A stretch of 64,000 nt of DNA from NCBI GenBank assembly GCA_000996895.1, contig LCBB01000001.1, positions 2,542-66,541 of the forward strand, written 5' to 3'. Positions within the stretch are counted from its first letter, which is position 1. Each line of letters starts with the position of its first letter. The notes beneath the pieces are model-generated. The model was given only the letters and a program-made list of their open reading frames with translations, did not search any database and was not told the origin of the DNA. This document shows, piece after piece, positions 746-19,689 of the stretch. The DNA is from a candidate division WWE3 bacterium GW2011_GWC2_41_23. GTDB taxonomy: Bacteria; Patescibacteriota; WWE3; UBA101185; UBA10185. Made by a program: the position numbers and the translations under genes.

Positions 746-810
746 CATAGCCAGATGCTCATATAACACTGCTGTTGTAATGTCTAGGCATATATATTAG
801 AATTATATAT

Positions 811-1143
811 ATGACTATTTTAGAAATATGGTCTTTACAGAAAATATCGATGCAAGTGCTAAGTACAATATTTTTTCTTTTAATAATATTTTTTTCGTAT
901 CAGGTACACACAAAGAAAAGGGGAAAGGTATACACGGCGCTTTGGATATCAATAACATATGTATCATATCTACTCTTTCTCATAGTCCCGTCTATAGTAA
1001 TGCAAAGCATATTAACAGATCCACCGAAGATGTTGCCATTCAACCATTTATTGTTATTTATTCTTTTACTCACTCCTTTAGTTGTTATCTGGCTTATATA
1101 CTTTTTAATTAGATTATCGAAGAAGAAAGGTCAGCAAAATTAG
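811..1143 (+). CDS. Small hydrophobic membrane protein (3-4 predicted TM helices), unknown function
   Basis: 110-aa ORF made almost entirely of hydrophobic stretches. It sits upstream of the ABC transporter pair and could be a cognate small membrane or immunity-type subunit. No motif recognised. Confidence 0.3.
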   Translation: MTILEIWSLQKISMQVLSTIFFLLIIFFSYQVHTKKRGKVYTALWISITYVSYLLFLIVPSIVMQSILTDPPKMLPFNHLLLFILLLTPLVVIWLIYFLIRLSKKKGQQN

Positions 1144-1304
1144 AAGTTTTAAGTAAACCGATTGCGTTTAGACCTATTTTCAGTAGCATGTTTTTCAACT
1201 CCTTGATTCTGTTTGGAATTGCTGTTTCTTGTTTACATTAATAAGCTATAGATTTTGTTCGAATCTATCTTTTTCAAAGAGGGTTTTTTACATAGTGGTC
1301 ACTT

Positions 1305-1365
1305 GCGTGGCCATTCTGGCCGAGCATGTCGGCCTAGAACAATACTCTTCTCTAGGCTTCAAGTG
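1305..1365. repeat. Structured intergenic repeat, copy B
   Basis: ggccgaGCATGtcggcc (perfect 6-bp stem) followed by tagaacaatactcttctctaggct. The stem sequence differs from copies A and C while pairing is preserved. Confidence 0.6.
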
Positions 1366-1425
1366 AGACAGACGAAACAGTACAAGATAAAAAACTAAAA
1401 GTGGTAAGCATCGCCAATAAGGTTT

Positions 1426-2376
1426 TTGATGGTAGTTAGTCGAGATATGGATATTATAAAGGTTGAAAATTTAACTAAGGAATTTAATAGTTTCAAGGCA
1501 GTAGATAACATATCCTTTGATATAAAAGAGGGTGAGATATTCGGACTTCTTGGTCCAAATGGGGCGGGTAAGACAACTACAATTAGGATTTTAACCGGAA
1601 TTTTAAAGCCAACTAAGGGCAGTGTAAAAATAGATAAATATGATATTCAAAATAAACCTCTAGACGCAAAACAATTAATGGGAATTGTTCCAGAGACAGC
1701 AGATGCTTATCCAGACCTATCTGCTTATAAGAACCTATTTTTTATTGGGGAACTGTACGGATTACAAAGAGGAAACATAGTTAAAAAAGCAAATAAGCTT
1801 CTAGAATTATTTGAATTAAAAGAGAAAATACATAATAAAGTTAAAACATTTTCAAAAGGAATGCGTCAAAGGTTGGTTTTAGCAATGGCTTTAATGAATG
1901 AATCAAAAATACTTATTTTAGATGAGCCTACTAGTGGATTAGATGTGAAAAGTGCGAGATTAATAAAAACTTTAATTAAAAAATTTAATCAAGAGAGTAA
2001 AACCATTCTTCTAACTACTCATAATATTGAAGACGCTAATCAGCTTTGTGATAGGGTGGCAATTATGAATTACGGAAAAATTGTAGCTATTGATAGCCCA
2101 GAAAAACTTAAAGATGTAATTCAGAGTTTATCTTCGGTTGAAGTTTCCTTTGAAAAACCCACTGATATTAAAGATTTTAAATTTGTTGATATAACTAAAA
2201 CAGTAAAAGAAGGTGATAAAATAAAGTTTTATACTAAAAATCCGGAAGGAGTATTGTTTTCTTTAGTTGACTATGCTAAATCATCAGGTAATAAAATTAT
2301 ATCTTTAAATACCTTGAAACCAACTCTTGAAGATGTATTTGTAAAATTGACAGAAAATAAAAATGATAATTCTTGA
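1426..2376 (+). CDS. ABC transporter ATP-binding protein (ABC-2 / DrrA-like exporter type)
   Basis: Walker A GPNGAGKTT, ABC signature FSKGMRQR, Walker B ILILDEPTSGLD, H-loop TTHNIED. The real start may be the internal ATG at 1447 (MDIIKVENL). Confidence 0.85.
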   Translation: MMVVSRDMDIIKVENLTKEFNSFKAVDNISFDIKEGEIFGLLGPNGAGKTTTIRILTGILKPTKGSVKIDKYDIQNKPLDAKQLMGIVPETADAYPDLSAYKNLFFIGELYGLQRGNIVKKANKLLELFELKEKIHNKVKTFSKGMRQRLVLAMALMNESKILILDEPTSGLDVKSARLIKTLIKKFNQESKTILLTTHNIEDANQLCDRVAIMNYGKIVAIDSPEKLKDVIQSLSSVEVSFEKPTDIKDFKFVDITKTVKEGDKIKFYTKNPEGVLFSLVDYAKSSGNKIISLNTLKPTLEDVFVKLTENKNDNS

Positions 2377-2995
2377 ACAACTAAAACGTTCGTGGGCAAT
2401 TACAAAAAAGAATCTTACGGTATCTTTTTTAAGAGGCCCTGTTATTGTATTTGGTATAGTAATGCCTGCTTTTTTATTTGTTTCTTTTTCTTTAAAAAGA
2501 CAAATATCTATTGAATCATTAATTCCTGGTCTTTTGGGGATGAGCCTTTTTTTCACAGTTTCGTCAATTACGCCAGGAATAATGCCTTGGGAAACTAAGA
2601 TGAAAACCTTAGAAAGGATAATCTCGTCTCCAGTAAAGTTGTGGGCAATCATTTTAGGAGATGTGCTTTCTTCTTTTATATATGGCATTTTAATTACAAT
2701 ACCTATATTTTTTGTAAGTTCTTTGTTTTTAGGAAAGTTAATTATTAATATTCCGATATTTTTAGCTACAATATTGGCCGCTTTTTGTTTCTCCTCCTTG
2801 GGAGAGCTTATTTCCTCAATACCTACCGATAACCCTTCAAATGCAATGATGTTGTCAACTTTAATAAAATTTCCATTAATTTTTATAAGTGGAATTTTTA
2901 TTCCCCTCACTGAAATGGGGAGTTTAAGAATTGTTTCTTTTTTCTCCCCCCCCAACCTACTACACAGATTTATTAAGAGGGTACATAGAAAATAA
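2363..2995 (+). CDS. ABC-2 type transporter permease
   Basis: 210-aa ORF with about 6 hydrophobic helices. It overlaps the stop of the upstream ABC ATPase by 14 nt, the usual ATPase-permease operon layout. Confidence 0.6.
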   Translation: MIILEQLKRSWAITKKNLTVSFLRGPVIVFGIVMPAFLFVSFSLKRQISIESLIPGLLGMSLFFTVSSITPGIMPWETKMKTLERIISSPVKLWAIILGDVLSSFIYGILITIPIFFVSSLFLGKLIINIPIFLATILAAFCFSSLGELISSIPTDNPSNAMMLSTLIKFPLIFISGIFIPLTEMGSLRIVSFFSPPNLLHRFIKRVHRK

Positions 2996-3225
2996 GAGTT
3001 ATTTTAACGCAACAACAAATCTTTTAGTACTTCTCATCTTTTCAGTTGCCTTTTTTTCATTAGCTATTATCCTACATAAAAGAAGTATGCCAAAAAGGTT
3101 CTAATCTTGATTTTTAATCTAAATCCACTTAATCAATTGCATTCCATTTTGGCTGGGTACAAGGGATGAAGTTCTAACATTTTGTGAACACTTGCGTGTG
3201 TCTGCTACATTTCAAACGCAATATT

Positions 3226-3708
3226 CTAACTGGGAGAAAATTCTAAAAAATCTTTTAGGATTGTGTTCTGCCTTCCCCCACACTTGTCGTTTATTTCAGC
3301 TTGAGAGTGCTTCTCATCTCCATATGCAACTATTTCTTTAACTTCAGTTGTAGAGCAAGGGTGCTCACCTTTATTTCCGTAGTAAAATTTCTTCCCTACT
3401 TCAATTTCCTGATAGCGTGTTATTCCAGAATCTAGGGGCGTTTCTATATCACTTCTACCATCTTTAATTATGGTCGTACCGTCGGGACCTACCCTAATGC
3501 CGTATATATTATCGGATACCGTCCTAAAAAGAACTCGTGTGTAAACTACGGAGCCTGGAGATTTGGTGGACATGCCTAAAAGTCTTCCTATCTCAAATTT
3601 ATCGCCCGCTCTATTTGTTTCATTTGCAAGTCTTCCCCCTCCAATATCTACCGGACCACGATGCTCCTCTGCTTCAAAAGATTCGTTTGGGTTTAATGTT
3701 TTGTTCAT
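3226..3708 (-). CDS. Hypothetical protein (160 aa, soluble, Gly/Asp-rich)
   Basis: Uninterrupted 160-aa ORF with no recognisable motif. It lies immediately outside the att-like repeat at 3741. Confidence 0.35.
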   Translation of the reverse strand: MNKTLNPNESFEAEEHRGPVDIGGGRLANETNRAGDKFEIGRLLGMSTKSPGSVVYTRVLFRTVSDNIYGIRVGPDGTTIIKDGRSDIETPLDSGITRYQEIEVGKKFYYGNKGEHPCSTTEVKEIVAYGDEKHSQAEINDKCGGRQNTILKDFLEFSPS

Positions 3709-3740
3709 TATTAAAACTATAACATCAAAATACTATAAAT

Positions 3741-3776
3741 ACCTCTTGGCTGGCCATTAGGGTCCAAGTTCGAACT
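3741..3776. repeat. att-like direct repeat of the tRNA-Gln 3' flank
   Basis: An exact 12-mer, cctcttggctgg, is found here and at 12341-12352 (the tRNA-Gln 3' terminus plus flank). Here it is followed by tagggtccaagttcgaac, which resembles the tRNA T-arm sequence tagggattcgaac, and is in the same orientation. Confidence 0.35.
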
Positions 3777-3889
3777 GTTGTTATGATAATAATAGGTTAA
3801 GAGCTACATAGCAGAAGTCTGGCTTAGGAAGTGCTGAAGCTTCTTCTACATTTGGTTCGTTAGGGAACTTTTCTGGACTCATTATATAA

Positions 3890-4684
3890 TTAGTCTAAAA
3901 AGGTGAAGGATTTTGCAATTTCTTCAGTGATATTTCTTAAAATCTTCTCATCTTCAGCTGGGATTTGTTCTGGGAAAGAATAGAGAGATAAGTATATGGC
4001 CATATCTCTATTTTCCCACTCATCTCCTAAATAATAGATTACCCCATAACCAACGTAAGGGACGCCTGTATACTGCAACTCTGCTTTCATGATTTTATAT
4101 ACTCCGCCTTCTACATCGGATCGTGTTACACCCGATTGCATGGGGCTAAACTCACCCTTCAACTGACTACGGGATATCTCTATATTTACTGGTTGGACGT
4201 ATTTATATTCAAGTGGTTCTCTTTGAATCCAAATAGTTCCATTAATGGTTCCACTATCCCTCAAGTAAAGTTCTTTTGGATACTTAAAACTAATATTTCT
4301 TACCTCATCGTAAGCATAGTCAAATTTTGTCTCATATAACACCCACGTGCTTACATCCATATTTATATCTTTTACAGCCGTCTTTGTACTTTGTGTTTCC
4401 TTTTGTACATTTGGAGCATTAATTAACTCATTTGAAACTTCATATATATTTTCCATGCTAGTATCTTTGTTGGCATTACTAATATTTGAGGCGTTTCTAC
4501 TTATGGAATCGGTTATAACCTTCTGGGAATTGGTTACAAATTTTTGATAAAGAATACCCAAGATAAAGCCAATAAATGGAAGTGTTATTAGAAGAATCAA
4601 TGCTAAAGTTTTAGACAAGCGAGTAACAGTAGTAAAAGGATTTGGTTTTGGAGTAATTGTTGTAGACTGATTGGTATCTTCCAT
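3890..4684 (-). CDS. N-terminally membrane-anchored extracytoplasmic protein, unknown function
   Basis: 264-aa ORF. A single hydrophobic helix (LALILLITLPFIGFILGILY) follows about 25 N-terminal residues. The rest is hydrophilic and Asn/Ser-rich. Confidence 0.45.
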   Translation of the reverse strand: MEDTNQSTTITPKPNPFTTVTRLSKTLALILLITLPFIGFILGILYQKFVTNSQKVITDSISRNASNISNANKDTSMENIYEVSNELINAPNVQKETQSTKTAVKDINMDVSTWVLYETKFDYAYDEVRNISFKYPKELYLRDSGTINGTIWIQREPLEYKYVQPVNIEISRSQLKGEFSPMQSGVTRSDVEGGVYKIMKAELQYTGVPYVGYGVIYYLGDEWENRDMAIYLSLYSFPEQIPAEDEKILRNITEEIAKSFTFLD

Positions 4685-4764
4685 ATAAGTTAAGCTTAGC
4701 TAAATAATTCATTGGCGTCAATGTGTTGATATGACAACAAAAACCTTGGCTGTCCGCGTGGGAG

Positions 4765-5202
4765 TTAGTTGGAACTTTTAACCTTTAAAAACTGATCCAT
4801 CAATTGAATATCCGCTAAATCTTTTTCACGGCCTAATGCTTTTTTAAACCCACGAAGAGTAAGTAAGTTAACGTAAGAATGGCCATCAATAATATCCGCG
4901 TTTTTTATTTGATTTTCCACTGCACATATTTTGGGATTAGCAAAATGAGAACCAAACCCTAATAAAGTTATATTACCAATCTGTATGGTTTCAAATCTTT
5001 CGCTTCTAACAGGATACATATTTTTGTACTTATTCCATATTTCTGGAAGAACTAATATATCTATGTCGTGTGGTTCTCTTAGATTTCTTACTGCTAATGG
5101 ACCTGACCCTGTAATTACGTATTCACCAATATTTAATCCTATTTGATCAAATTCATTTAATAGTGTGGATATGCTCACATAGCTAGTATAACGTAGTTCC
5201 AA
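4765..5202 (-). CDS. Minimal nucleotidyltransferase (MNT / pol-beta superfamily) domain protein
   Basis: Motif ITGSGPLAVRNLREPHDIDILV fits the GS...DxD signature of pol-beta-type nucleotidyltransferases (antitoxin-type MNT). Length is 145 aa. Confidence 0.45.
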   Translation of the reverse strand: MELRYTSYVSISTLLNEFDQIGLNIGEYVITGSGPLAVRNLREPHDIDILVLPEIWNKYKNMYPVRSERFETIQIGNITLLGFGSHFANPKICAVENQIKNADIIDGHSYVNLLTLRGFKKALGREKDLADIQLMDQFLKVKSSN

Positions 5203-5235
5203 AGCTTGGGTAGTACTGCAGATTTAAATGTAACA

Positions 5236-5290
5236 ATCTGACTGAGCATGTCAGTCTAGAACAATTACGTTCTCCAGGCTATTTGGCTGG
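5236..5290. repeat. Structured intergenic repeat, copy C
   Basis: gactgaGCATGtcagtc (perfect 6-bp stem, GCATG loop) followed by tagaacaattacgttctccaggct. It belongs to the same family as copies at 689-745 and 1305-1365. Confidence 0.6.
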
Positions 5291-5317
5291 CGGTATTGTA
5301 CACGATTTGAATCAGAA

Positions 5318-5749
5318 TCACCCCTTTTCACTAAATGGTTTATAGGGAATGTAGGATCTAATACTCAGGCCGTATTTTTGTATTAAGTTCTTATCCAAAA
5401 ACTTACTCTTCATGTATATGTCTCTAATGTTCTGCATAAGAATTTTCTGTTTATTACCTATGCTTGTCTGATCTGGAAATTTTTTTTCATCAGTAATATT
5501 ATGAACAAGATCGTTTCTATTGCTACTTAGTTCGTTAAGTAGTGTTGCTTCTGATTTACTGATCTCTTCTTTTAATAGAAGAGTCAAGATTGCTGAGCTA
5601 AAAGTGTCACGTCCCGTGTGTTTTCTTACAATACCTTCAACTATGAATGCATGAACGAGCACATTTCGTAATTGGCTACTTCGTTTACCTGTTAGTATTT
5701 CTTCTTTAAACTCGTTTTTAATCCACCTGGGATTACTCATATTTGTCAT
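5318..5749 (-). CDS. HEPN-like protein (two RNxLVH motifs)
   Basis: 143-aa ORF with two copies of the R-x4-H pattern, LRNVLVHAF and NRNDLVHNI, which resemble the RNxLxH(xY) motif of HEPN/HepT RNases. It is adjacent to the MNT-like gene. Confidence 0.35.
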   Translation of the reverse strand: MTNMSNPRWIKNEFKEEILTGKRSSQLRNVLVHAFIVEGIVRKHTGRDTFSSAILTLLLKEEISKSEATLLNELSSNRNDLVHNITDEKKFPDQTSIGNKQKILMQNIRDIYMKSKFLDKNLIQKYGLSIRSYIPYKPFSEKG

Positions 5750-5783
5750 GTGATTTATTTACAAAGCAAGAATATCAAGTTAT

Positions 5784-5999
5784 TTAATGAAACCCACCTG
5801 GGTCAGGGTCATACTCTCTGTCATCGTTAAGAACCTTCACTTCTACCTTGTTTCCCGCATCATCCGTAAAGGTTTCTGTTGAATAATACGGCATGTCACT
5901 GTCACTGCTACTCGAGTTTGGTGGGGAGGAAAGTGTACACCCTGTCACAAAAACACTAATAAATGGTAGGAGCGCTATTAATAGTATTCTACTAATCAT
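5784..5999 (-). CDS. Small lipoprotein (71 aa)
   Basis: Signal peptide MISRILLIALLPFISVFVTGC with a lipobox-like VTGC, followed by a Ser/Asp-rich mature part. The ORF track extends the start to 6086, but the extension is hydrophobic with no signal logic, so the start at the Met at 5999 is preferred. Confidence 0.4.
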   Translation of the reverse strand: MISRILLIALLPFISVFVTGCTLSSPPNSSSSDSDMPYYSTETFTDDAGNKVEVKVLNDDREYDPDPGGFH

Positions 6000-6113
6000 T
6001 TCTAGCTCAACTATACCTTCAAAAAAACTTAAAGTACAATTGTAAACGGGTAATTTGAGTAAGAACTTGGCGGTCTTGTACGCCATTTGAAATGTTTTAC
6101 CCTGGTAAACTTA

Positions 6114-8498
6114 TCAAGCGATATGGTTATCTAATATGTCTTGGACAAAATCAATGCCCTTACTAATTGTGTTGTAATTTGTATTTGCCAAACTCCAAGC
6201 ATGAGAATCTTGCTGAGAAATATCTAAAATACTTCTTAATTTGTCGGTGTTTTCATCAGGTAGCCCTACTGAATTTGCCTTGTCGAATAGTCCTTTTATG
6301 CCTAAATTCTTTTGAACATTCTTCGCAATATTAAATGGAATAGAGTTGTACATCAAATATTCTATACACACAGATTCCATCGCCTTTCTTAACTCACCTC
6401 CTGCTGTCTCTAAAGATGTTATATCACCAAGTAAAAGCATATCTTTACAAACTTTGAGGTGTCTTTCAGTATCTCTATAGCCTATTAATTCAATTTTGGG
6501 TCCCTTTTCATCGTTATTATAAAAGTGGTATATTGCTGGTTTGGTGCTATAAAACCTTCCTTTTAACTTTAGATAGAATTCTTTGGAATGTGTCATGATA
6601 ATTAATTGTTTACGTTGCTGAATTTCAACAAGTACTTCCAATAGTGACTGGGAATGATTGTCATCCATTGATTGAACGGGGTCGTCTAGAATTACACATT
6701 CCCACGTCGCATTCCTATCTACTCTTTGAGGAAAATAGATACTTAACGCTAGGCTATTTGTGTGTGCTTCGCTAAAGAAAGTAACTGGATTTACTTGCTT
6801 TCCATATGCTTCTGCTTTTAGACTAGCCTGTCTTCTATTCTCTTTAGTCTCTATTCCGAAAAACTGTACTTTATCGCTTGGGTTAAGTTTGTGGTAATAA
6901 TCCTTAATTTCGTCGGCATGTAACGCAAGTAGTGTTTCAATCTCCTTTTTTTCAAACTCCTCAAGATCTGTTTGTATCAGGTCTATTTCTAATAGTAGTT
7001 TGTGCCGTGTAATAAATTCAGCAGAGTTGTTTAAAAACTTCGATACCTTTTCGATATAAAACCACTTTTTAAATGTGTTCTGATCAACGTCTTTCTCAAG
7101 AGATATAGCTTTTCCTATGCCCTCTTTAAGAGATTCCCAAGCGCTATTTATATCTTCAAAATGTTGTTTTATAGAATTTACAAGGTTATCAATATTTATC
7201 TCAAGCACTACATCGGTATTTTTATGAAAATATTTTTGTTCAACGTACACGCGATAAGATTCCCAGCTTTCCTTTAATGTTTGGGCTAGTCGCGCGGTAT
7301 CTGTATCTACTTTAGTTTGAAGTTGTTGAGTTGCTATAGCTAGATCTTCCAACCCAGTTTCCTTGAGTTTAATTGCAACTGCAGCCAGTTCAGTTTCATT
7401 AGGTAAGTACGTCTTACACGAAATTTCAAAATTACTTAGCCACAAACTTATTTCATCAGTCTGTGTTTTTAGGCGTGAGTTTGCAATTTGTATTTCCTCG
7501 TTATCTTTCAATAACTTGCTAATCGAATTTTTTCTTTCCTCGGTATACGTTTCTTCTAAACAAAATGGGCATACTGGGGATTTTCCTAAAACATATCCGA
7601 GGTTTAGGAATTCTAATTCGCTTTTCCCGTAGGATCCGTACGAAACCTTTATTGCTTCACTTGCGAACCCCTCAAAGCCTGTTTTAATATACTCTGCGAA
7701 TTCATCTATTTTAAACCTGTCGGGGTAGCTTATAGATGTTACTCTATTACCTAATTCTGAATTTAATAGAGCTTTAATTTTAGATGATATGGCCGCCGAA
7801 ATTGCTTCGATGTCATGGTTACTAATTGATAAGATCTTCGATAGTTCTAAGTGAAACTCCGCTACATTTAAACTAGACAAACTTTGTGTAAGAGAAATAA
7901 ATTCTGGATACTCAGTTAGCTCGGTAATAAGGGACTCGTATTTTCTTAGGGAGCTTTTGTATTCGTCAGTTTTCTTGTTATTACGAAGAGCCATCAAATC
8001 ATCTCTTGATGTTGATAGTGTATCTTGACCCAAAATACAAGATATCTGTTCCCATCTATCTTTTGGCTCAGCATCAACAAGAGCCTTAATTTCAGTCTGA
8101 GCTAGCATGGGACGAAAATAACTTTCTAGGTTTAAAGCGAGCGAACTAAAATCAGCGACCTCCAAATCGTTTATGTACAGCTTATATTCTCTCGAGATCA
8201 ATTCTTTTTTTAGCTTATACTCTATTCCTCGAATTGTGCCTGTTAACTCTACGAACGGGTTTTCAGATTCTGAGTAGAAGACGTTCTTTAAGTACTCTTC
8301 GTACTGGTATTCTGATTTACAGCGAGAGAGACGTTGCCTAGATATTTGATCAAAAAAAAGCCACTCTAAAGCTTCTGTTAAGCTACTCTTCCCAGAGCCG
8401 TTTTGTCCGTAAACAATAGTTATGTTGTCGTCAAATAATATTGTCTCCTCGGTGTTAAAACCCCGAAAGCCTTTGATAGTTATTTTTTTAAGTTTCAT
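6114..8498 (-). CDS. Rad50/SbcC/RloC-like ABC ATPase with coiled-coil and CPFC zinc-hook motif, plus a C-terminal HEPN-like domain (RDTERH)
   Basis: 794 aa. N-terminal MKLKKITIKGFRGFN...GQNGSGKSS (Walker A, RecF/SMC-head type). A long predicted coiled-coil centre carries CPFC (the Rad50/RloC hook CPxC) at about residue 305. Walker B/D-loop CVILDDPVQSMD and H-loop IIMTHS lie near residue 600. A roughly 170-aa C-terminal domain contains YRDTERHL (Rx4H). The architecture matches RloC/PrrC-like anticodon-nuclease-type or abortive-infection ATPases. Confidence 0.55.
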   Translation of the reverse strand: MKLKKITIKGFRGFNTEETILFDDNITIVYGQNGSGKSSLTEALEWLFFDQISRQRLSRCKSEYQYEEYLKNVFYSESENPFVELTGTIRGIEYKLKKELISREYKLYINDLEVADFSSLALNLESYFRPMLAQTEIKALVDAEPKDRWEQISCILGQDTLSTSRDDLMALRNNKKTDEYKSSLRKYESLITELTEYPEFISLTQSLSSLNVAEFHLELSKILSISNHDIEAISAAISSKIKALLNSELGNRVTSISYPDRFKIDEFAEYIKTGFEGFASEAIKVSYGSYGKSELEFLNLGYVLGKSPVCPFCLEETYTEERKNSISKLLKDNEEIQIANSRLKTQTDEISLWLSNFEISCKTYLPNETELAAVAIKLKETGLEDLAIATQQLQTKVDTDTARLAQTLKESWESYRVYVEQKYFHKNTDVVLEINIDNLVNSIKQHFEDINSAWESLKEGIGKAISLEKDVDQNTFKKWFYIEKVSKFLNNSAEFITRHKLLLEIDLIQTDLEEFEKKEIETLLALHADEIKDYYHKLNPSDKVQFFGIETKENRRQASLKAEAYGKQVNPVTFFSEAHTNSLALSIYFPQRVDRNATWECVILDDPVQSMDDNHSQSLLEVLVEIQQRKQLIIMTHSKEFYLKLKGRFYSTKPAIYHFYNNDEKGPKIELIGYRDTERHLKVCKDMLLLGDITSLETAGGELRKAMESVCIEYLMYNSIPFNIAKNVQKNLGIKGLFDKANSVGLPDENTDKLRSILDISQQDSHAWSLANTNYNTISKGIDFVQDILDNHIA

Positions 8499-8643
8499 TT
8501 TTTATTTTCTCCAAAAGCTTATCAAAACTTATGGACAGGGACTCATATTTTCGTGTTTTTATGTACTCTTTTAATAGTTCTTTTTGAACTTCATTTAAGG
8601 TCTCGTAAAATTTTTCTAAGGGTGTACTTATATTAGTTGTCAT
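8488..8643 (-). CDS. Small hypothetical protein (51 aa) translationally coupled to the ABC ATPase
   Basis: Internal Met start MTTNISTPLEKFYETLNEVQKELLKEYIKTRKYESLSISFDKLLEKIKNET. It overlaps the ATPase start by 11 nt and is charged and helical. The longer 98-aa version in the ORF track has an implausible N-terminus. Confidence 0.35.
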   Translation of the reverse strand: MTTNISTPLEKFYETLNEVQKELLKEYIKTRKYESLSISFDKLLEKIKNET

Positions 8644-8674
8644 AACGGGATTATAGCAGTTTTTTGGAGATGCG

Positions 8675-9445
8675 TTGTATACTCCACTTATGCTGAAATT
8701 GATTGATATCGTAGTGTTGCGCAGTGTAAATCCAATTAAAATTGTAAATCGTCCTAGTGTTAAAACATTGGAGTTTCTTAACAATCTTATTAGGACAAAA
8801 GGTATTGAGGAATTTATTGAAAACGCAAGGCGTCAATATAAGATAAGTGACGCTGGATTAGACATCCGTAAGCTAGTGGGGGTTAACTTGTATGATCTCG
8901 GTGATACAAATATTAATGCTTTTAAAATTATTGCGGACGAGTATGTTCGTAGTACTGGCATGCCTTCTGAACAAGCTCTTGAAATATTTTTACTGGTTAT
9001 GTTCAACGCTATAATAGATCTTAAGTATTTTAAAAGCGCACCTTCTGACCCCAATGAGTTTGTATTTGGGCGTAGAAAAATAGCCGATAAAATGTGGGAG
9101 TATTCGCACGAAGTAGGTGCAATTATAGTCCCTTTTGACGTGTCTAAGACCAAGCTAAAAAAATGGATAGATACAAACTGGAAGCTTATAAGTGAGGATA
9201 TGATAAACAATTTTACTTCAAACCCATTTATTCTAGGTATCCATGAAAATTTGATATACGAGGAAGAGATAAGAGAATTAAAAGAAGAGAAAGGCAAATC
9301 CTTTGCTCAGGTTACTGAAATATTACAAGGTAAATACCCCAAAGATAAGTGGAAGCTTTCCAGAGTTAAAAAAGTCTACTACGACGCACGCCAAAGGGAA
9401 ACCTTACAGAAGTTGAAACAACAACGCGATCTTCAGACACCTTGA
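8675..9445 (+). CDS. Hypothetical protein (256 aa), divergent from the ATPase operon
   Basis: Long ORF, Lys/Glu-rich at the C-terminus, no recognised motif. The start is uncertain (possibly the Met at 8690). Confidence 0.45.
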   Translation: MYTPLMLKLIDIVVLRSVNPIKIVNRPSVKTLEFLNNLIRTKGIEEFIENARRQYKISDAGLDIRKLVGVNLYDLGDTNINAFKIIADEYVRSTGMPSEQALEIFLLVMFNAIIDLKYFKSAPSDPNEFVFGRRKIADKMWEYSHEVGAIIVPFDVSKTKLKKWIDTNWKLISEDMINNFTSNPFILGIHENLIYEEEIRELKEEKGKSFAQVTEILQGKYPKDKWKLSRVKKVYYDARQRETLQKLKQQRDLQTP

Positions 9446-9647
9446 ATAGTTCCTGTTAGGTGACTAGTTTATAAATCTTATACATTCAGCTAAGTATGCT
9501 GAGTGGCAACAATCTAGACAAACTAACAGAATACCTTCGTAGACTTGGGTACACCAGTCTAAGCGTGAGCGAAACAATTTCAGCCTTTACGGCAATTACT
9601 CCTGTTTTAGCTTCAATATCCTTACGTATTTATCAGGAGAAAATGAA

Positions 9648-10730
9648 ATGATAGATACTCTAAGGTTTAAAATATTGGGCAGCAAAGAAATATATAACGC
9701 GATAAAAAATAAAGGAATAGAAAGAGTTATGTGGGATTATGCAGAAGATAAGCAAAAACATGTATCGGTTTATCAATTAATCCTAGTACCCAGTAAGGAA
9801 TGCAAAATATACATTCAAGCACAGGATTACGAGCACTTTTTTGTAGAGTTTTCCTTACCTAAAGTTTTGTTTGGTACAAATGTGTTCATGATCTACCCCG
9901 AACAGGTTACTGCCACTCTAATTGAAGTTTATAGGATAATTCGTAATTTTTTGAAGCTACCGATAGATTCAATAGATAATTGGATAGTGCAAAGGGTTGA
10001 TTATAGCTATGTTTGGAAATTTGATAATGCTATGCAAGCTCTTTGGGTACTCGAGAACATGGCAAAGTTTCAATACCCAAGGAAAAATGTAACTATCAGG
10101 GACACGTCTGTAACTATTAATGGCACGACCGAAAGAATGATCTTCTACTTAAAGCATGAAGAATATGTAGATAAGACTTACAAGAAATTAGCAAAAACAC
10201 AGCCAAGGATTGCTGAGTTTCTTTTTGAGGAGTCCAAAAACACATTGAGGTTTGAAATAGTACACATGAAGGCTAAATTAAATAGCATTTTTGGGAGTGA
10301 AGTTACTTACAAGGAAGTTTTGGGTGAGAAATATATCATTAGCACCTTGAATGAAGCACTGAAGACTTTTTGTAATTCTAATACACTGATCTCAATGACG
10401 TGGCACGAGGCAGTAGAACTTGTTTATTCAAAATTATCGGGTCGTGAGGCCTTTAATTTATACGGCTTTCTGTGCATGTATTACCCATACGACATGTCTC
10501 AGAGGGAATATAACAGAGCGTTTTTAAAGCAAAACATTAGTCCATCAACCATATATAAGTATAAAGAAAAATTCAAGGAGATTGGTGGTGGAATACTATT
10601 TAGTAATCCTGAGTTTAAGGCTATAGACTTGAATATTCCTAATATTCGTGTAATTAATACGGAAGATCGTGTCGCGGATATAGCGAAAGCGATCCGCGAC
10701 CTCCGTATTGATGATTTGCAATCTGTTTAA
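9648..10730 (+). CDS. Hypothetical protein (360 aa), possible replication or mobilisation protein of the island
   Basis: AGGAGA SD before the ATG. Long ORF immediately upstream of the serine recombinase. No motif confirmed. Confidence 0.45.
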   Translation: MIDTLRFKILGSKEIYNAIKNKGIERVMWDYAEDKQKHVSVYQLILVPSKECKIYIQAQDYEHFFVEFSLPKVLFGTNVFMIYPEQVTATLIEVYRIIRNFLKLPIDSIDNWIVQRVDYSYVWKFDNAMQALWVLENMAKFQYPRKNVTIRDTSVTINGTTERMIFYLKHEEYVDKTYKKLAKTQPRIAEFLFEESKNTLRFEIVHMKAKLNSIFGSEVTYKEVLGEKYIISTLNEALKTFCNSNTLISMTWHEAVELVYSKLSGREAFNLYGFLCMYYPYDMSQREYNRAFLKQNISPSTIYKYKEKFKEIGGGILFSNPEFKAIDLNIPNIRVINTEDRVADIAKAIRDLRIDDLQSV

Positions 10731-10773
10731 CTGCGTACTCTAATAGCAGTTAAACATTTCTATATAGAAATAT

Positions 10774-12408
10774 ATGAATGAATTAAGAAATAAGAATTGC
10801 ATACTTTTCTGTAGAGTCTCTTCAAGAGAGCAAGAAGAAACTGGCTACTCCCTTCCTGCGCAACAGTCTTATCTCCAAGCCTACACGAATAGAAGTCGTT
10901 TAAATGTGATTAGGGCTTTTAACATTTCTGAAAGTGCTAGTGGTAGAAAAGCACGTGTGGAGTTTAATCAGATGTTAGATTACGTTAGGAAACAAAACAT
11001 CAACGTAATTATCTGCGAGAAGGTGGATAGGCTGACAAGGAATCAAAAAGATGCCTTGACGATAGATGATTGGGTTAAAGAAGATGTTTTTCACGAGGTA
11101 CATTTTGTTAAAAATTCATTTATTCTAAATAAGGAGTCAAAGGCTAGTGATAAGTTCGTTTGGAATATTCACGTATCTCAAGCTCAGTTTAATATAGAAA
11201 ACCTCTCAGAAGAGGTTAAGAAGGGTCAAAACGAGAAGATTTCAGAGGGTTGGTATCCATCTCAAGCACCCGTTGGGTACAGGTCAGGTCTGAACGGAAA
11301 AAAGAAGATTATAGAGCTAGATCCAAACACAGCACCGTTAATGGAGAGGGTACTAGTTGAGTATTCTACAGGTGTTCATTCCGTGTTATCTATTTGTAGA
11401 TTTGCTCAAAAAATCGGATTAAGAAATCTCAAAGGTAATTTTATAGCTAAAACTTCCATGCACAGGATTTTACAAAACCCCTTTTATTACGGAATGTTTA
11501 CATGGAATAAAGCCAGTTATGTTGGTAATCACCCAGCCATTATTGATAAAGATACATTCGATAAAATTCAAAAGTATTTGAAGCGAAAGACTCCTCTTGT
11601 TTATAGACAACTTAATGCTCTTTATAGTGGTATTTTGCATTGTAAGGATTGTGGAGGATTAATTACTTGGGAAAGTCATAAAGGTCATCAGTATGGTTAT
11701 TGTAAGGGCTGTAGAGGTAAACGCGGAGTTAAAGAACCTGAAATTAATAAACCAATTCAAAAGTTATTTGGTAACGCTAAGATACATAAAAAGCAGGTCG
11801 CTGATGCAGTTCGTGAAGGTGTTATTTCTTATGTGAAGAACTCTTACGGTATTGTTGGTAAATCTAATGCACAGATTGAAAAGGATATTGAAAAATATAC
11901 TAATAGGTTGAGTAAGCTTTATGATGATCGTGCTGACGGGCTGTTAACTCCTGAAATGTACTTCAACAAATTTGCAGAATATAACAACACACTCACTGAT
12001 TTGAGAATTCAGTTAAAAGAAAATAGCCAGCATAAGGAGTTTTTTGATATTGAAGGTTTTAAGCAATTCTTTGAAGGTTCTCAGAATTTGGAACTGTATT
12101 ATGAGAAAGCTACTAAAGACGAAAAAAGAAAACTACTTAAATTCGCTTTTGAAGATTTAGCTTACGCTAATAATTCTTTGGGATATAACTTTTCTAAGGC
12201 TTATTTATTACTTTATAAGGCTGTTGAGATTACTAATAGTTCGGAAATCAAAAATATTAAGGAATTTCAGGAATATATTTCCGAACCTGACGAATTAGTT
12301 GCTAGTAAAACAAAAAATGACTCTTTTCGAGCTATTCGTTCCTCTTGGCTGGGGGATAGGGATTCGAACCCCAATAGGCGGGACCAAAACCCGCAGTCCT
12401 ACCGTTAG
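10774..12408 (+). CDS. Large serine recombinase (resolvase/invertase N-domain, recombinase domain and zinc ribbon)
   Basis: N-terminal CILFCRVSSREQ with the catalytic Ser in RVSS. Central recombinase domain, Cys cluster CKDCGG...HQYGYCKGC (zinc ribbon), then a coiled-coil-like tail. The last ~21 codons are read through the antisense of tRNA-Gln. Confidence 0.85.
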   Translation: MNELRNKNCILFCRVSSREQEETGYSLPAQQSYLQAYTNRSRLNVIRAFNISESASGRKARVEFNQMLDYVRKQNINVIICEKVDRLTRNQKDALTIDDWVKEDVFHEVHFVKNSFILNKESKASDKFVWNIHVSQAQFNIENLSEEVKKGQNEKISEGWYPSQAPVGYRSGLNGKKKIIELDPNTAPLMERVLVEYSTGVHSVLSICRFAQKIGLRNLKGNFIAKTSMHRILQNPFYYGMFTWNKASYVGNHPAIIDKDTFDKIQKYLKRKTPLVYRQLNALYSGILHCKDCGGLITWESHKGHQYGYCKGCRGKRGVKEPEINKPIQKLFGNAKIHKKQVADAVREGVISYVKNSYGIVGKSNAQIEKDIEKYTNRLSKLYDDRADGLLTPEMYFNKFAEYNNTLTDLRIQLKENSQHKEFFDIEGFKQFFEGSQNLELYYEKATKDEKRKLLKFAFEDLAYANNSLGYNFSKAYLLLYKAVEITNSSEIKNIKEFQEYISEPDELVASKTKNDSFRAIRSSWLGDRDSNPNRRDQNPQSYR

Positions 12409-12419
12409 ACGATCCCCCA
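12346..12419 (-). tRNA. tRNA-Gln (anticodon UUG)
   Basis: Reverse complement TGGGGGATCGTCTAACGGTAGGACTGCGGGTTTTGGTCCCGCCTATTGGGGTTCGAATCCCTATCCCCCAGCCA. U1-A72 pair, G73 discriminator, anticodon loop TTTTGGT giving UUG, T-loop TTCGAAT, CCA encoded. Confidence 0.8.
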
Positions 12420-12513
12420 ATGACAAATTATTATAGCATCTAAAAAACTTGTATCCTCAGAGAAATCTCAAATTCTTACCTCTTCCTAACCCTCCCCCAA
12501 ACTCCAACCCCCC

Positions 12514-13329
12514 CTAATCCTCCATCATCTGCCTCAACATCCCCATCTTCGCATCCATAGCCTCTTCTCCGCACGATACGATTCCTTTTTCTTTTACAAA
12601 ATTCTTGAATAAACTAAATTTTCCTTCCGGGATTTTAGGGTTTAAAGCAATGTCGGCATCGTCCAGGTTTTCTACGGCCATTCTATTTAAAAGCATTTGG
12701 TAAGAAAGTCTAAAAACCTCACGTGTGGTAAGTTTCATCTTGCCTTCTATGGCTGCGGTCAGGGGAAATATGTTTCCGTACAAGTTAACTCCTATAACAA
12801 GGTCCGCTCCCATCTGATACGCCATCTTCGCTGGCACGGGAGTTGAATTTCCTCCGTCCACCAGCTTTTTTCCGTCAATGGTTACCGGTGCCAGAACCAG
12901 GGGTATTGAAATACTTGCCCTTATTGCCGTAGCCAAATTGCCCTTACCTAAATAAACAGTTTCTCCGGTTAAAATATCGGTTGCCACGGCCTTAAAAGGT
13001 ATTTTTAGCTGTTCGATTTTCACGCCTTTTAGAAATACCTCTAAAAACTGCAGGAATTTGTTGCCTTTTAACAAACCTAAATCAGCCATCGGGTCCGACA
13101 AAACTCTGAAAAGATCCTGGTATTTGATTCCCGCGATAATCTCCTCTATTTTTGAAACTTCTCCGTAATAGGCATATAAACCCCCGACAAGAGCTCCGAT
13201 ACTTGAACCTGTAATGTAATCAACGGGAATATTATTTTTCTCGAGGGATTTTAAAACTCCGATATGCGCAAGGCCTCTCCAGCCTCCGCTCCCCAAAGCC
13301 AATCCGATCTTTACTTTTTTTCCGCTCAT
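12514..13329 (-). CDS. Patatin-like phospholipase
   Basis: Oxyanion-hole GSGGWRG and nucleophile elbow GSSIG (GxSxG), plus DGG near the C-terminal half (catalytic Asp). Confidence 0.8.
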   Translation of the reverse strand: MSGKKVKIGLALGSGGWRGLAHIGVLKSLEKNNIPVDYITGSSIGALVGGLYAYYGEVSKIEEIIAGIKYQDLFRVLSDPMADLGLLKGNKFLQFLEVFLKGVKIEQLKIPFKAVATDILTGETVYLGKGNLATAIRASISIPLVLAPVTIDGKKLVDGGNSTPVPAKMAYQMGADLVIGVNLYGNIFPLTAAIEGKMKLTTREVFRLSYQMLLNRMAVENLDDADIALNPKIPEGKFSLFKNFVKEKGIVSCGEEAMDAKMGMLRQMMED

Positions 13330-13775
13330 TTTATTTCAACAAAAGTTTCGTCAATTAAATTTCCGAATCCGTCTTCCATTGTAATCCTATATTCCCCCGG
13401 ATTTAAGTTTGTAATTGCTCCAAAGATTTCGTAGTAAACATAAATCTCCTCTTCAGTGAATTCATTGTCCCTTAAAATCACCGTGATATTAGGATCAACT
13501 ACTAAAAATGGAAAGGACGGTTGAAATTTTAACTTACGCCTCATCTGAGCGGTTTCAAAATTTCCTTTTAGGTCGTAAAACTTTGTCTCAAGTAAAATGG
13601 AATCTTCCTGCGCCGTTACTTTTAGCGGAAGTTGTTTTGCATCATCTATAACCTGACTTTTTATCTCGTAATTAAATTTTGGAGAAGACACCTTCACTAA
13701 AAGTATAAAACCGGTAGCGAGGGCGAAAACCAGCGCCAGTATAAGGACGATTTTTCTTTTTGTCTGAAACGTCAT
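13326..13775 (-). CDS. Membrane-anchored protein (149 aa), co-translated with the patatin-like lipase
   Basis: N-terminal TM helix ILALVFALATGFILLV. Its stop overlaps the patatin start in an ATGA arrangement. Confidence 0.5.
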   Translation of the reverse strand: MTFQTKRKIVLILALVFALATGFILLVKVSSPKFNYEIKSQVIDDAKQLPLKVTAQEDSILLETKFYDLKGNFETAQMRRKLKFQPSFPFLVVDPNITVILRDNEFTEEEIYVYYEIFGAITNLNPGEYRITMEDGFGNLIDETFVEIK

Positions 13776-13781
13776 GACCCT

Positions 13782-14513
13782 ATGTTACCATATACCGGTA
13801 TGGTATTACCTCAAAAACACACCGGTACTGTGGTAGAAAAGAAGGCTGTTTCTCCTTTAGTTACGTGGTTAAGACTCAAAATTGAGGGAGTTTCCGACTT
13901 TTCTTTTATCCCCGGCCAGTTCATAAATCTTGAAGTAGGTGACGGAATCTACCGTTCTTACTCTATTTGCAACGATACTGTAGGCGGGGGCTTTGTAGAA
14001 CTTGCCGCCATCACCGGACGCCCGGGTTTGGGGGCTAACCTTATCAATTCTTTGAAAATAGACTCGTCTGTGGGCTTTGTAGGCCCTTCCGGACGCTATT
14101 CTTATAGAAAAGGCGGCCGAAAGAACGTAGTTTTTGTGGCTACCTCTACCGGCATTGCCCCCTTTATTCCTATGATAGGTCAGGCTTTAGAGGATCCTTT
14201 TGTAGAGTCTATTACACTGGTATTCGGCGTACGCGACCAGGAAGACGTCTTTTTCGAGGACAAATTCAAGAAGTTTTTAGAGATGTCACCCAAATTTAGC
14301 TACTTTATATGTTTGTCGGGAGTTGCCGACGGACTTAAACCGCCCTATTTTGCAAACCGAGTAACCTTTTGTTTACCCGATTTTGTTAAGGATGCTACTG
14401 ATTTTTACTTATGCGGAAACACCGCGATGATCCGCGACTGTTCTGATATTATTAGTAAAGCGGGGTTAGAAGATTTTGCTATTTATACCGAGGCTTTTAA
14501 CCCGAATTTGTAA
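13782..14513 (+). CDS. FNR-like FAD/NAD(P)-binding oxidoreductase (ferredoxin-NADP reductase family)
   Basis: RSYSI (RxYS FAD-binding motif) and VFVATSTGIAPF (NAD(P)-binding GxGxxP-like), with the typical two-domain length of 243 aa. Confidence 0.65.
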   Translation: MLPYTGMVLPQKHTGTVVEKKAVSPLVTWLRLKIEGVSDFSFIPGQFINLEVGDGIYRSYSICNDTVGGGFVELAAITGRPGLGANLINSLKIDSSVGFVGPSGRYSYRKGGRKNVVFVATSTGIAPFIPMIGQALEDPFVESITLVFGVRDQEDVFFEDKFKKFLEMSPKFSYFICLSGVADGLKPPYFANRVTFCLPDFVKDATDFYLCGNTAMIRDCSDIISKAGLEDFAIYTEAFNPNL

Positions 14514-14515
14514 GT

Positions 14516-15358
14516 ATGGGCGGAAAAGAAGGATACACAAAAGAAGAATATTTTACTGCATCGGACGACATTGCTGATTCGATAAAAGCTGAGTATTCTT
14601 CGGTGTCTCCCGAGGAGCAGGAGTTTGTTAATGTCATAGCTCAGGGGATTAAAGACTACGTTGTCCAGACCTACGGCGAACACATCTCAAAGGATATGAA
14701 GGAGATGCTCGAGACTGCAAATAAAAGAATAGTAATGGTCGATAACGAAGGTTTTAAGAATCTATCTGAAGATTGGAAACCCGAAAGTGCGTTGCCGGCA
14801 CCTGAAGGAGCCGCATATTTCTCAAAAATCGGAAACCTGGTGATTATGCGCGATATGATAGAACACTCTAAAGTAATCTGGGAACAAGGTAAAGAAATGT
14901 TCGAATCCCTTCCCGAGGACCAAAAAAGAATGGTACTCCCGTACATACGTTTTTCGCTAGTTACACAAGCGCTTATTCACGAACTTGTACACTCTTGTCA
15001 GGAAGATACGGGCGAACACCGCAATAAGAACGTATACCGAAGGATGGCCCTGGATGAGTGCGGTGCTTCATGCCTAACCGATAAGATTATGAAAGAGAGA
15101 TACCCAAAGGGAAACTTTCTTGAAAGTAAGGATAGCAAAATCAGGATAGATACGTTCAATTATTTGCTTGGAAAGTACGGGGATGAAGTTTACGATGTTT
15201 TTTTCAACAATGTTCCTGAAGTAGCCGTTGATAAAGCAAGACACGAAGAACTTCAGAAGAATATATACTCGGAGTTTGGAACTAAAAAACTTGTACAGGT
15301 AGGTATACTTGACGATGATAAAGCGGGTGTCTACGATCACATGAGTGAGAGTTGGTAG
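14516..15358 (+). CDS. Hypothetical protein with HExxH motif (HELVH)
   Basis: 280-aa hydrophilic ORF. HELVHSCQED suggests a possible metal-binding or metallopeptidase-like site. Otherwise unrecognised. Confidence 0.45.
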   Translation: MGGKEGYTKEEYFTASDDIADSIKAEYSSVSPEEQEFVNVIAQGIKDYVVQTYGEHISKDMKEMLETANKRIVMVDNEGFKNLSEDWKPESALPAPEGAAYFSKIGNLVIMRDMIEHSKVIWEQGKEMFESLPEDQKRMVLPYIRFSLVTQALIHELVHSCQEDTGEHRNKNVYRRMALDECGASCLTDKIMKERYPKGNFLESKDSKIRIDTFNYLLGKYGDEVYDVFFNNVPEVAVDKARHEELQKNIYSEFGTKKLVQVGILDDDKAGVYDHMSESW

Positions 15359-15361
15359 TAA

Positions 15362-15400
15362 AAAAATCCCCGTCTATCTTCGCTTTTGGCAAAGTTAAAC
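15362..15400 (-). terminator. Candidate intrinsic terminator of the copper operon (minus strand)
   Basis: Minus-strand hairpin ccccgt...acgggg followed by ATTTTTTTAC. It lies between convergent genes. Confidence 0.4.
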
Positions 15401-15416
15401 GGGGTGTAAAGCAGGG

Positions 15417-15647
15417 TTACTTAATCATCAGCAGATACACGGAAACAATCACTCCGAGGAAGGAAGCAATGGCAGATTTAGTGTATTTTGCCAAGGCGAA
15501 CCCGACCGCGGAAATAAAAAGGGAGCCGCCGAGAAAAATAATTGGTGTGAAGTGGTGTCTTCCGAATATAACCAGGGTTATTAACGCCCAGCAGGTAAAA
15601 TTTAGGCCCAACATTCCAAAGGTTGCCGCTATCGATTTTTGCTCCAT
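15417..15647 (-). CDS. Small two-TM membrane protein (76 aa) at the end of the cop operon
   Basis: Two hydrophobic helices. Preferred over the overlapping plus-strand 110-aa ORF because of operon context and hydrophobicity pattern. Confidence 0.4.
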   Translation of the reverse strand: MEQKSIAATFGMLGLNFTCWALITLVIFGRHHFTPIIFLGGSLFISAVGFALAKYTKSAIASFLGVIVSVYLLMIK

Positions 15648-15721
15648 TTCATTCTCCTTTTCTAGCGCTGATTTTGTCCTATAGTATACAAATGGGGGTA
15701 AAAAGTCAACAGTACCGCTAA

Positions 15722-17947: not shown

Positions 17948-18010
17948 AATTTCATTTTATGAGCAGAAGAAGTATCTTCTGCGAAGAAAAGAAGATGTTT
18001 ATTAACATCT

Positions 18011-19336: not shown

Positions 19337-19369
19337 TTTCTAAAATAGTTTCCGGAATTTTATACATGT

Positions 19370-19639: not shown

Positions 19640-19643
19640 ATGG

Positions 19644-19658
19644 TCCCCCACTGGGGGA
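19644..19658. promoter_or_regulatory. Candidate CsoR operator
   Basis: Perfect GC-rich palindrome TCCCCCA-c-TGGGGGA immediately upstream of the csoR start. It resembles described CsoR operators with a CCCCCAGTGGGG core. Confidence 0.55.
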
Positions 19659-19689
19659 TACATTAAAAAGTAGCACATATAGAAGGAGG

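Follow-up and report, generated by a model that had tools for sequence, protein, structure and literature searches.

What kind of system is encoded where a Rad50-like ATPase with a CPFC hook motif follows a 51-codon open reading frame (ORF) in a candidate division WWE3 genome, and what might the small gene contribute? The locus lies in a 64,000-nt stretch of contig LCBB01000001.1 (positions 2,542 to 66,541) of WWE3 bacterium GW2011_GWC2_41_23, called the window here and numbered from its own first letter. An original prediction, made from the sequence letters, described an RloC/PrrC-type ATP-binding cassette (ABC) ATPase with a HEPN-like C-terminal domain and a coupled small ORF, situated in a mobile island. 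Our analysis indicates that the module is real, conserved and rare, and that it is an RloC-like variant with a partner absent from the one RloC locus checked. By analogy with RloC, we consider it reasonably probable that the pair constitutes a two-gene, horizontally mobile stress or anti-phage module of RloC type, composed of an ABC-HEPN protein and a micro-protein. The parts of the module are as follows.

6114..8498, minus strand: 794-aa ABC ATPase with zinc hook and C-terminal HEPN domain (ORF, homologues and AlphaFold2 [AF2] model)
8488..8643, minus strand: small partner gene, 51 aa (MTTNISTPLEKFYETLNEVQKELLKEYIKTRKYESLSISFDKLLEKIKNET), with its stop 11 nt inside the ATPase gene
8385..8408, minus strand: Walker A/P-loop GQNGSGKS, residues 31-38, invariant in 41 sequences
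7587..8099, minus strand: N-terminal helical arm, residues 134-304 (AF2 DSSP helices and heptad signal)
7542..7586, minus strand: hook loop GKSPVCPFCLEETYT, residues 305-319, Pro/Gly-rich and carrying the invariant CPxC
7560-7571, minus strand: CPFC, residues 310-313, with C310, P311 and C313 invariant
6885..7541, minus strand: C-terminal helical arm, residues 320-538, with long helices (e.g. 384-424, 493-538) and heptad signal
6663..6776, minus strand: ABC signature-like FSEAHTNSL (575-583) through Walker B/D-loop CVILDDPVQSMD (601-612)
6120..6473, minus strand: HEPN-fold C-terminal domain, helices 676-793, following a beta-hairpin at 655-672
6375..6389, minus strand: R704-K-A-M-E708, the R-x3-E half of a putative triad (R704 in 41/41, E708 in 36/41)
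6201..6206, minus strand: S765-H766, putative catalytic His after Ser (H766 in 41/41, S765 in 38/41)
6459..6476, minus strand: RDTERH, residues 675-680, not conserved and judged non-functional

The ATPase head, hook and C-terminal domain

Both reading frames first proposed for the locus were recovered, the 51-aa ORF overlapping the 794-aa ORF by 11 nt, and both are conserved across relatives. The shared nucleotides are ATGAAACTTAA; the junction of the two ORFs reads AAAAATGAAACTTAA, with GGAG placed 10 nt upstream of the ATG of the 794-aa ORF. In an alignment of 41 sequences, where homologues are 27-49% identical to the 794-aa protein, G31, N33, G34, G36, K37, S38, Q134, C310, P311, C313, F575, S576, E577, N581, L604, D605, D606, P607, Q609 and D612 are invariant. 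The signature region follows an invariant pattern, FSE..N..L.S.YF.QRV, and H637 is almost invariant. Walker B reads CVILDDP (residues 601-607), and the CxxC is present in all full-length relatives, distant ones included. The anticipated SMC/RecF-type head with Walker A, Walker B and CPFC was thus located; its ABC motif set (Walker A, Q-loop, signature, Walker B/D-loop and H-loop) is complete and varies little or not at all within the family, a degree of conservation that chance would not produce. Conservation of these residues indicates selection for a working ATPase, and the same alignment makes the hook a defining feature of the family.

Pfam families AAA_23, SMC_N and AAA_13 all score past their cut-offs on the 794-aa protein. 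An AF2 model built from the family alignment (mean predicted local distance difference test [pLDDT] 86.1) divides the chain into a beta-rich N-lobe (1-133), helices (134-304), a loop (305-319), further helices (320-538), a C-lobe (544-672) and a helical C-terminal domain (676-793). In Foldseek searches, the model resembles the heads of Rad50, SMC, cohesin and condensin with their coiled coils, as well as LmuB (E 1e-14 to 1e-8). A crude test of heptad periodicity, run on the family alignment, placed 37% of C-arm windows and 18% of N-arm windows (residues 160-304) beyond the 95% null, versus 0-3% in the heads; Pro and Gly together make up 1.8% of the C-arm. The original call of a coiled coil with a CxxC hook is therefore borne out by the helical arms, the heptad enrichment and the Pro/Gly-rich loop, whereas zinc binding and placement of the hook at an apex are only predicted. 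We also considered CPFC/CPYC as a glutaredoxin-like redox motif and ruled this out, the motif lying in a loop between long helices with thioredoxin-fold elements absent from the AF2 model.

The C-terminal domain has, in the model, the four-helix up-down arrangement of a HEPN fold. The HEPN-like domain of 170 aa originally described thus survives as to fold, but its extent is nearer 120-147 aa (648/676-794) and the motif offered in its support was the wrong one. RDTERH, read as an Rx4H active site, has its Arg (R675) in 1/41 sequences and its His (H680) in 9/41, and sits in the wrong place in the fold. An Rx4H is expected 0.49 times per protein of such composition, and in shuffles the probability of at least one occurrence was 0.40 along the full chain and 0.10 within its last 170 aa; we dropped RDTERH as a non-conserved chance match. 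In this domain G691, R704 and H766 never vary among the aligned sequences, and conservation of S765 and E708 is high. Across 96 full-length members, Glu is found at R+4 in 79 and Ser directly before His in 87, and the E-to-H spacer ranges from 44 to 72 with a mode of 56 (57 in the window protein). R704, S765-H766 and, in most members, E708 are arranged like the catalytic triad of RloC/PrrC, which favors a nuclease of that type.

The closest structural neighbors of the domain are HEPN proteins associated with minimal nucleotidyltransferases (MNT). By sequence, DUF4145 is weakly matched by 11/28 family C-terminal domains (best E 8e-4) and by 8/10 of those in a sister subfamily (E 7.6e-5 to 2e-3). 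DUF4145 is a member of the HEPN clan often linked to restriction-modification (R-M) (PMC3710099). An exhaustive HMMER search with a C-terminal profile against 1.84 billion representatives returned 67 proteins and did not reach RloC; almost all were proteins of ~790-845 aa with the domain at the C-terminus, or fragments thereof. Two relatives, P0110 (896 aa) and P0135, have an extra extension of ~90 aa beyond the HEPN domain, with weak similarity to the Peptidase_U32_C beta-barrel (E 7e-4 to 2.5e-3).

Comparison with RloC and the conserved small partner

RloC is a wobble-nucleotide-excising anticodon nuclease with the motif R-x3-E-x36-52-H, often with Ser ahead of the His, and each residue of the triad is essential for the nuclease. 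Its nuclease is silenced by the zinc hook and activated by DNA-dependent ATPase and DNA-break inducers. The 804-aa protein of Geobacillus kaustophilus (GkaRloC) has its hook cysteine C291 at 36% of the chain and its triad at R692/E696/H737; the corresponding positions of the window protein are C310, at ~39% of the chain, and R704/E708/H766. RloC of E. coli APEC O1 was used in PMC3458546, and our candidate for it is WP_000423308.1 (738 aa), annotated only as 'AAA family ATPase'. It is encoded in a defense hotspot of a P2-like prophage (L036 45933-48149, corresponding to NC_008563.1 925932-928148), between replication endonuclease and portal genes, and ~500 nt upstream of it are ORF-free. The protein carries CPFC at 254, LSEGEK, IVIDDPISSL and R646-x3-E650-x39-S689-H690. 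Its match to Pfam AAA_13 runs over the full length (374 bits, model positions 11-713), and AAA_13 can therefore be taken as the RloC model; the isolated nuclease domain of the protein matches positions 585-713 with 77.5 bits.

The window protein scores 47.7 bits against AAA_13 (cut-off 36), but the match covers just model positions 256-604, which take in the hook and everything up to where the ATPase ends. BLASTP against E. coli RloC is collinear at Walker A and over residues 309-645 (RloC 253-579), and hhalign assigns the ATPase C-lobes a probability of 97.5%. The likeness in plan is extensive: each is a single chain of ~740-800 aa with an ABC head, a CxxC-bearing helical insert at ~35-39%, a DDP Walker B and a C-terminal nuclease with R-x3-E...S-H. 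Even the hook context, CPFCxExT, is nearly identical, E. coli RloC having STCPFCQEKT at the equivalent point. Both are laterally mobile and mostly unlinked to R-M, a minority lying beside Type I/III systems. They differ in that the nuclease domain of the window family is DUF4145-like by sequence and shows no detectable homology to that of RloC, in the E-to-H spacer (mode 56 versus 36-52 in RloC, though some members have 44-52), in the signature (FSEAH versus LSEGE) and in the obligate upstream partner of ~50 aa. At the single E. coli RloC locus, no partner ORF is present, all three frames upstream of the start being closed.

The sensor and hook share homology with those of RloC, whereas the effector, though alike in fold class and residue pattern, belongs on sequence evidence to a different, DUF4145-like HEPN lineage. 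The RloC/PrrC-type architecture originally claimed accordingly stands for the sensor-hook-nuclease plan and falls short for the nuclease domain itself; remote homology of the two nuclease domains inside the HEPN superfamily is possible. The subfamily of P0133 was tried as a bridge from the C-terminal domain to the nuclease part of AAA_13 and rejected, its isolated domains matching DUF4145 and its long AAA_13 alignment being run-on. One family fragment is named 'wobble nucleotide-excising tRNase' by the Joint Genome Institute, the sole RloC-named protein in searches from alignment A2 and from P0133, and PDB searches brought up no solved RloC structure.

Other relatives share fewer features. The ABC-HEPN fusions PrrC, APECO1_4465 and ERFG_01251 (PMC3710099) likewise combine an ABC ATPase with a C-terminal HEPN domain in a mobile or defense context. 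PrrC, however, has neither coiled coil nor hook and always resides inside a Type Ic R-M locus, whereas the window protein has both structures; the window contains no hsd locus, and R-M at 20 homologous loci is Type III only (2/20). ERFG_01251, compared by description only, joins an ABC domain to a classical MNT-type HEPN, in keeping with the MNT-associated nearest neighbors of the window domain, but is reported with the canonical Rx4-6H that the window family lacks. Rad50-Mre11/SbcCD shares the head fold, coiled coil and zinc-hook logic; the window protein differs in its much shorter arms, its additional HEPN domain and a context that is mobile rather than housekeeping. Mre11/SbcD is absent among the 25 most frequent Pfam families of 112 neighbors at 20 loci, and a housekeeping SbcCD setting, which would have spoken against a defense role, was thus not encountered.

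A search of 5.8 billion proteins gave 84 matches to the 794-aa protein, one of them identical and ~75 of them full-length (788-817 aa, 29-49% identity). Full-length relatives total ~100 (~775-845 aa) and occur in both Bacteria and Archaea. A genome scan yielded 22 loci of the ATPase family, in Omnitrophota, Saccharibacteria, Ignavibacteriales, Clostridia, Thermodesulfobacteriota, many Solirubrobacterales/Actinomycetes, Chloroflexi, Acidimicrobiia, Bathyarchaeia and Aenigmatarchaeota. By these searches, the family is rare and reaches Archaea and bacteria of the candidate phyla radiation (CPR). Curated plasmid and phage collections held no close relatives, the best match having ~29% identity in the ATPase part only. 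The ATPase gene is frameshifted or split at four loci (L009, L025, L026 and L030), in a metagenome-assembled genome (MAG) of Clostridia, two actinobacterial MAGs and a Bradyrhizobium plasmid, with the upstream small ORF intact in each.

The small ORF is the sole conserved neighbor of the ATPase gene. At 21/22 loci from diverse phyla it ends within the first 26 nt of that gene, and at 17/22 the two genes share exactly 11 nt, like the window pair. Partner length, counted from the best start, is usually 48-59 aa. The arrangement is kept across very different base compositions, and conservation is therefore at the protein level. Partner proteins align as one family with the pattern h-L-E-x-h ... 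L ... L-L/h ... [FW]-[DA]-x-h-h; actinobacterial members are strongly acidic (11-14 D/E versus 1-4 K/R), whereas those of low-GC lineages are near neutral. For P0133, carried on a conjugative element (L027), the partner of 66 aa is significantly similar (17 bits versus at most 5.2 in 400 shuffles); the 79-aa ORF at the partner position of P0142 has no detectable similarity. Pairs are annotated in RefSeq on a Nitrosospira plasmid (WP_213539971.1 and WP_213539970.1) and on a Bradyrhizobium conjugative plasmid. Gene callers can overlook the small gene, which is uncalled in WWE3 contig L031. Searches of the partner against Pfam, PADLOC, NCBIfam, PHROGs and PDB gave zero matches, and no sequence similarity to Mre11, SbcD, LmuC or other solved proteins was detected. 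On comparative grounds, the ~50-aa protein is an obligate, translationally coupled partner of the ATPase.

Upstream of the small ORF, an extended -10 consensus, TGCTATAAT (8644-8662, minus strand), ends 6 nt before the ATG, and no Shine-Dalgarno sequence precedes the ORF. These two features suggest a leaderless transcript. Promoter and terminator scans as a whole gave no signal exceeding chance.

The mobile element and its surroundings

Rightward of the module lie the following features.

9648..12419, mixed strands: mobility end of the element, comprising Rep, serine recombinase and tRNA-Gln as right boundary
9648-10730, plus strand: Phage_CRI/G2P-like replication gene (Pfam)
10774-12408, plus strand: large serine recombinase (Pfam)
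12346-12419, minus strand: tRNA-Gln (tRNA prediction)

Over its final ~20 codons (...WLGDRDSNPNRRDQNPQSYR), the recombinase ORF reads the strand antisense to tRNA-Gln, the probable integration target, which the gene therefore adjoins or runs into. Comparison of two WWE3 strains (L031 versus L033) revealed zero differences over window positions 774-12421, followed by 20-30% divergence; strain-to-strain identity stops exactly at the 5' end of tRNA-Gln, and the left edge lies beyond window position 774. Since adjacent host genes of the two strains are 78-82% identical and the block is 100% identical, this is direct evidence for recent transfer or exchange of a stretch of 11.6 kb or more in which the module lies. 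The placement of the module inside a mobile island, part of the original prediction, is thereby upheld by the Rep and serine recombinase genes, the tRNA-Gln boundary and the identical block. G+C content is 31-37% in the first ~12 kb and 38-46% in the remainder of the window, and the module sequence is identical across 24 WWE3 contigs. Flanking proteins are the same, residue for residue, as in MAGs from Rifle groundwater, the host being an uncultured WWE3 bacterium. Because the left boundary lies past position 774, the element also includes an ABC transporter (1426-2995).

Two further readings of the island were discarded. A 12-nt repeat (3740-3751 and 12339-12350) was tried as attL/attR of an 8.6-kb element, but strain identity runs left at least as far as 774; and strain-variable cargo beside the recombinase was not seen, the same island being present in every contig read.

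Elsewhere, the 112 neighbors of family members at 20 loci include tyrosine and serine recombinases, transposases, type IV secretion system genes, AbiEi, a DRT-type reverse transcriptase, PD-Lambda-3, a Ymh-type HEPN and DUF5615. Neighboring Rep and recombinase genes are not conserved across loci. Type III Mod and Res genes directly adjoin the ATPase at 2/20 homologous loci, similar to the ~11% of RloC reported beside R-M. The statement that no R-M partner is nearby thus holds for the window but not for the whole family.

Several other features of the window were recorded. Immediately after the ATPase gene, a 100-aa ORF (5784-6086, minus strand) probably encodes a small lipoprotein, since an internal Met precedes the lipobox-like LLPFISVFVTGC; it has no family match and is absent as a conserved companion of the module at other loci. 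Downstream of the module (4765-5749, minus strand) are two genes that, from their motifs, form a probable HEPN-MNT toxin-antitoxin pair. The 143-aa protein (5318-5749, minus strand) has two canonical RNxLVH motifs (28-33 and 78-83) and weak HepT, DUF4145 and CARF-HEPN matches, and the 145-aa protein (4765-5202, minus strand) has the minimal nucleotidyltransferase motif GSG...DIDILV, a match to phrog_12854 (1e-5) and a weak AbiEii match. PDB sequence searches with this pair were empty, and the pair is not conserved beside homologs of the ATPase elsewhere.

A 47-nt direct repeat with 79% identity occurs in exactly two copies in the window (1312-1358 and 5234-5280; 0.02 expected), one upstream of the ABC-transporter gene and the other between the HEPN-like and MNT-like genes. 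The copies contain the hairpins GGCCGA-GCATG-TCGGCC and GACTGA-GCATG-TCAGTC, which differ by two compensatory pair changes, followed by the conserved CTAGAACAAT; both fold with z of about -3.2 on the plus strand, and the repeat has no Rfam match. A second 51-aa ORF (9496-9651, plus strand), for which no family match is known from the searches, shares 4 nt with the beginning of the Rep gene (9648). Eight tRNA genes (Gln, Val, Phe, Gly, Leu, Leu, Lys, Arg), all on the minus strand, lie within ~17 kb (12346-28993).

Proposed working and alternative readings

In the working model that we favor by analogy with RloC, two protomers would pair via zinc held by four hook cysteines, and the RNase would be silent in the resting state. 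DNA at the heads, probably ends or abnormal phage or damaged DNA, would trigger ATP hydrolysis, and the ensuing conformational change would switch the HEPN RNase on. HEPN RNases generally act as dimers, and head engagement would therefore probably juxtapose the two HEPN domains. The RNase would then cleave RNA, probably tRNA, and translation would stop. The ~50-aa protein, made in fixed proportion by translational coupling, would be a stoichiometric subunit and most likely a silencer or adaptor on the ATPase-HEPN protein. Our more specific proposal is tentative and somewhat unlikely as it stands: an obligate third functional element absent from canonical RloC, the small protein would be either a minimal remnant of the Rad50-binding C-terminal domain of SbcD, analogous to LmuC and seated on the coiled coil or heads, or a dedicated silencer displaced by a phage or DNA-damage cue that fires the HEPN RNase. 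The adaptor version, though hypothetical, is attractive by analogy with the SbcD C-terminal domain and LmuC.

Several observations weigh against an RloC-type module. The canonical Rx4-6H of HEPN RNases is missing, the His alone being retained, usually as [DN]-x-x-S-H; there are HEPN families that retain the His and use a basic residue at another position in place of the Arg (PMC3710099). E708 is replaced by A, G, C or S in ~18% of members, and the loop bearing H766 is modeled with low confidence (pLDDT ~53-66). Between the C-terminal domain (alignment A2) and the nuclease domain of E. coli RloC, the one RloC sequence compared, hhalign gave a probability of 0.1%, and isolated C-terminal domains do not match the nuclease part of AAA_13 (positions 585-713). 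The helical arms are unequal (171 versus 219 residues), the apex position of the hook being predicted from its secondary-structure context. The element is present in all 24 + 24 WWE3 contigs, with no empty site, so that presence/absence polymorphism lends no support to a defense role. Finally, the best similarity in the defense library is to LmuB and not to RloC.

The last point bears on an alternative that we regard as unlikely, namely a Lamassu-type system with a fused effector, in which an LmuB/SbcC-derived sensor of DNA ends would be served by a small protein representing a minimal LmuC/SbcD C-terminal remnant bound to the coiled coil or heads, HEPN would replace LmuA, and the effector would be released or oligomerize as in Lamassu rather than obey an internal switch of RloC type. 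The best PADLOC matches are indeed LmuB models (3.8e-38 over residues 1-255; 2e-26 over residues 1-646 with a 611-position model), and LmuB 9hqu_B is among the Foldseek matches. Long LmuB proteins have an hhhhDD Walker B and a single CxxC, as does this SbcC/Rad50-like ATPase, and the LmuC gene stands just before LmuB, exactly where the small gene is found here; one proposal traces LmuC to the C-terminal domain through which SbcD binds SbcC. LmuB and RloC share SbcC ancestry (discussed in PMC12663957), with which the LmuB matches are consistent. The window protein carries its effector at its own C-terminus, as RloC does, and there is no separate LmuA: no LmuA-like gene, nor any other conserved neighbor, lies beside the ATPase at the 22 loci. 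The small protein matches no LmuC model and no SbcD/Mre11 chain, and ~50 aa is far below the size of LmuC proteins, described as globular domains in the Lamassu paper. The Lamassu-type and RloC-type readings overlap.

Less probable still is a toxin-antitoxin module that stabilizes the mobile element, a labile small antitoxin blocking the HEPN RNase, with post-segregational killing in place of phage sensing. The order of genes, small gene first and translationally coupled, is that of type II systems; carriers of the module include integrative elements, conjugative ones and plasmids, the partners in actinobacteria are highly acidic, and the same element has a probable HEPN-MNT pair close by. For plain addiction, however, a Rad50-like sensor of 800 aa whose ATPase and hook residues are invariant would be superfluous, partner charge is near neutral in low-GC lineages and Pfam and PDB searches detected no DNA-binding domain in the partner; addiction and defense roles can, moreover, coexist. 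We think it very unlikely that the HEPN-fold domain is non-catalytic, serving nucleic-acid or nucleotide binding or dimerization in an SMC-like DNA-handling factor that might, for instance, act when the rolling-circle Rep element is replicated or partitioned. Such a role would fit the missing Rx4-6H, the existence of HEPN domains that are non-catalytic binders (PMC3710099), the adjacent Rep gene in the window and a Foldseek result for the C-terminal domain that was not significant. R704 and H766 are invariant, though, and with Ser-His and Glu at R+4 in most members they form the pattern of a mutationally proven RNase triad; Rep and recombinase are not constant companions; and degraded copies at four loci are typical of costly or toxic genes.

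Few defense proteins are believed to link the sensing of DNA damage directly to a halt in translation, and RloC is one of them. The family described here, whose proteins are at present annotated as 'AAA family ATPase' or 'SbcC', retains the sensor-hook-nuclease plan of RloC, swaps in a DUF4145-type HEPN domain and adds a conserved, coupled micro-protein. Through this family, a defense-type module is documented in Archaea and, on an element that arrived by recent transfer, in a CPR (WWE3, Katanobacteria) genome. If the small partner regulates its ATPase, presence or absence of 51 codons would offer a simple genetic handle on how a Rad50-like sensor gates a fused effector, and would bear on whether small proteins encoded upstream of SbcC-like ATPases, such as the SbcD C-terminal domain and LmuC, are recurrent adaptors. 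Should our proposal for the partner be true, the family would be a distinct two-component defense system linking SbcCD, Lamassu and RloC evolutionarily, and one that operates in CPR bacteria, Bathyarchaeia and Aenigmatarchaeota, where few defense systems have been characterized.

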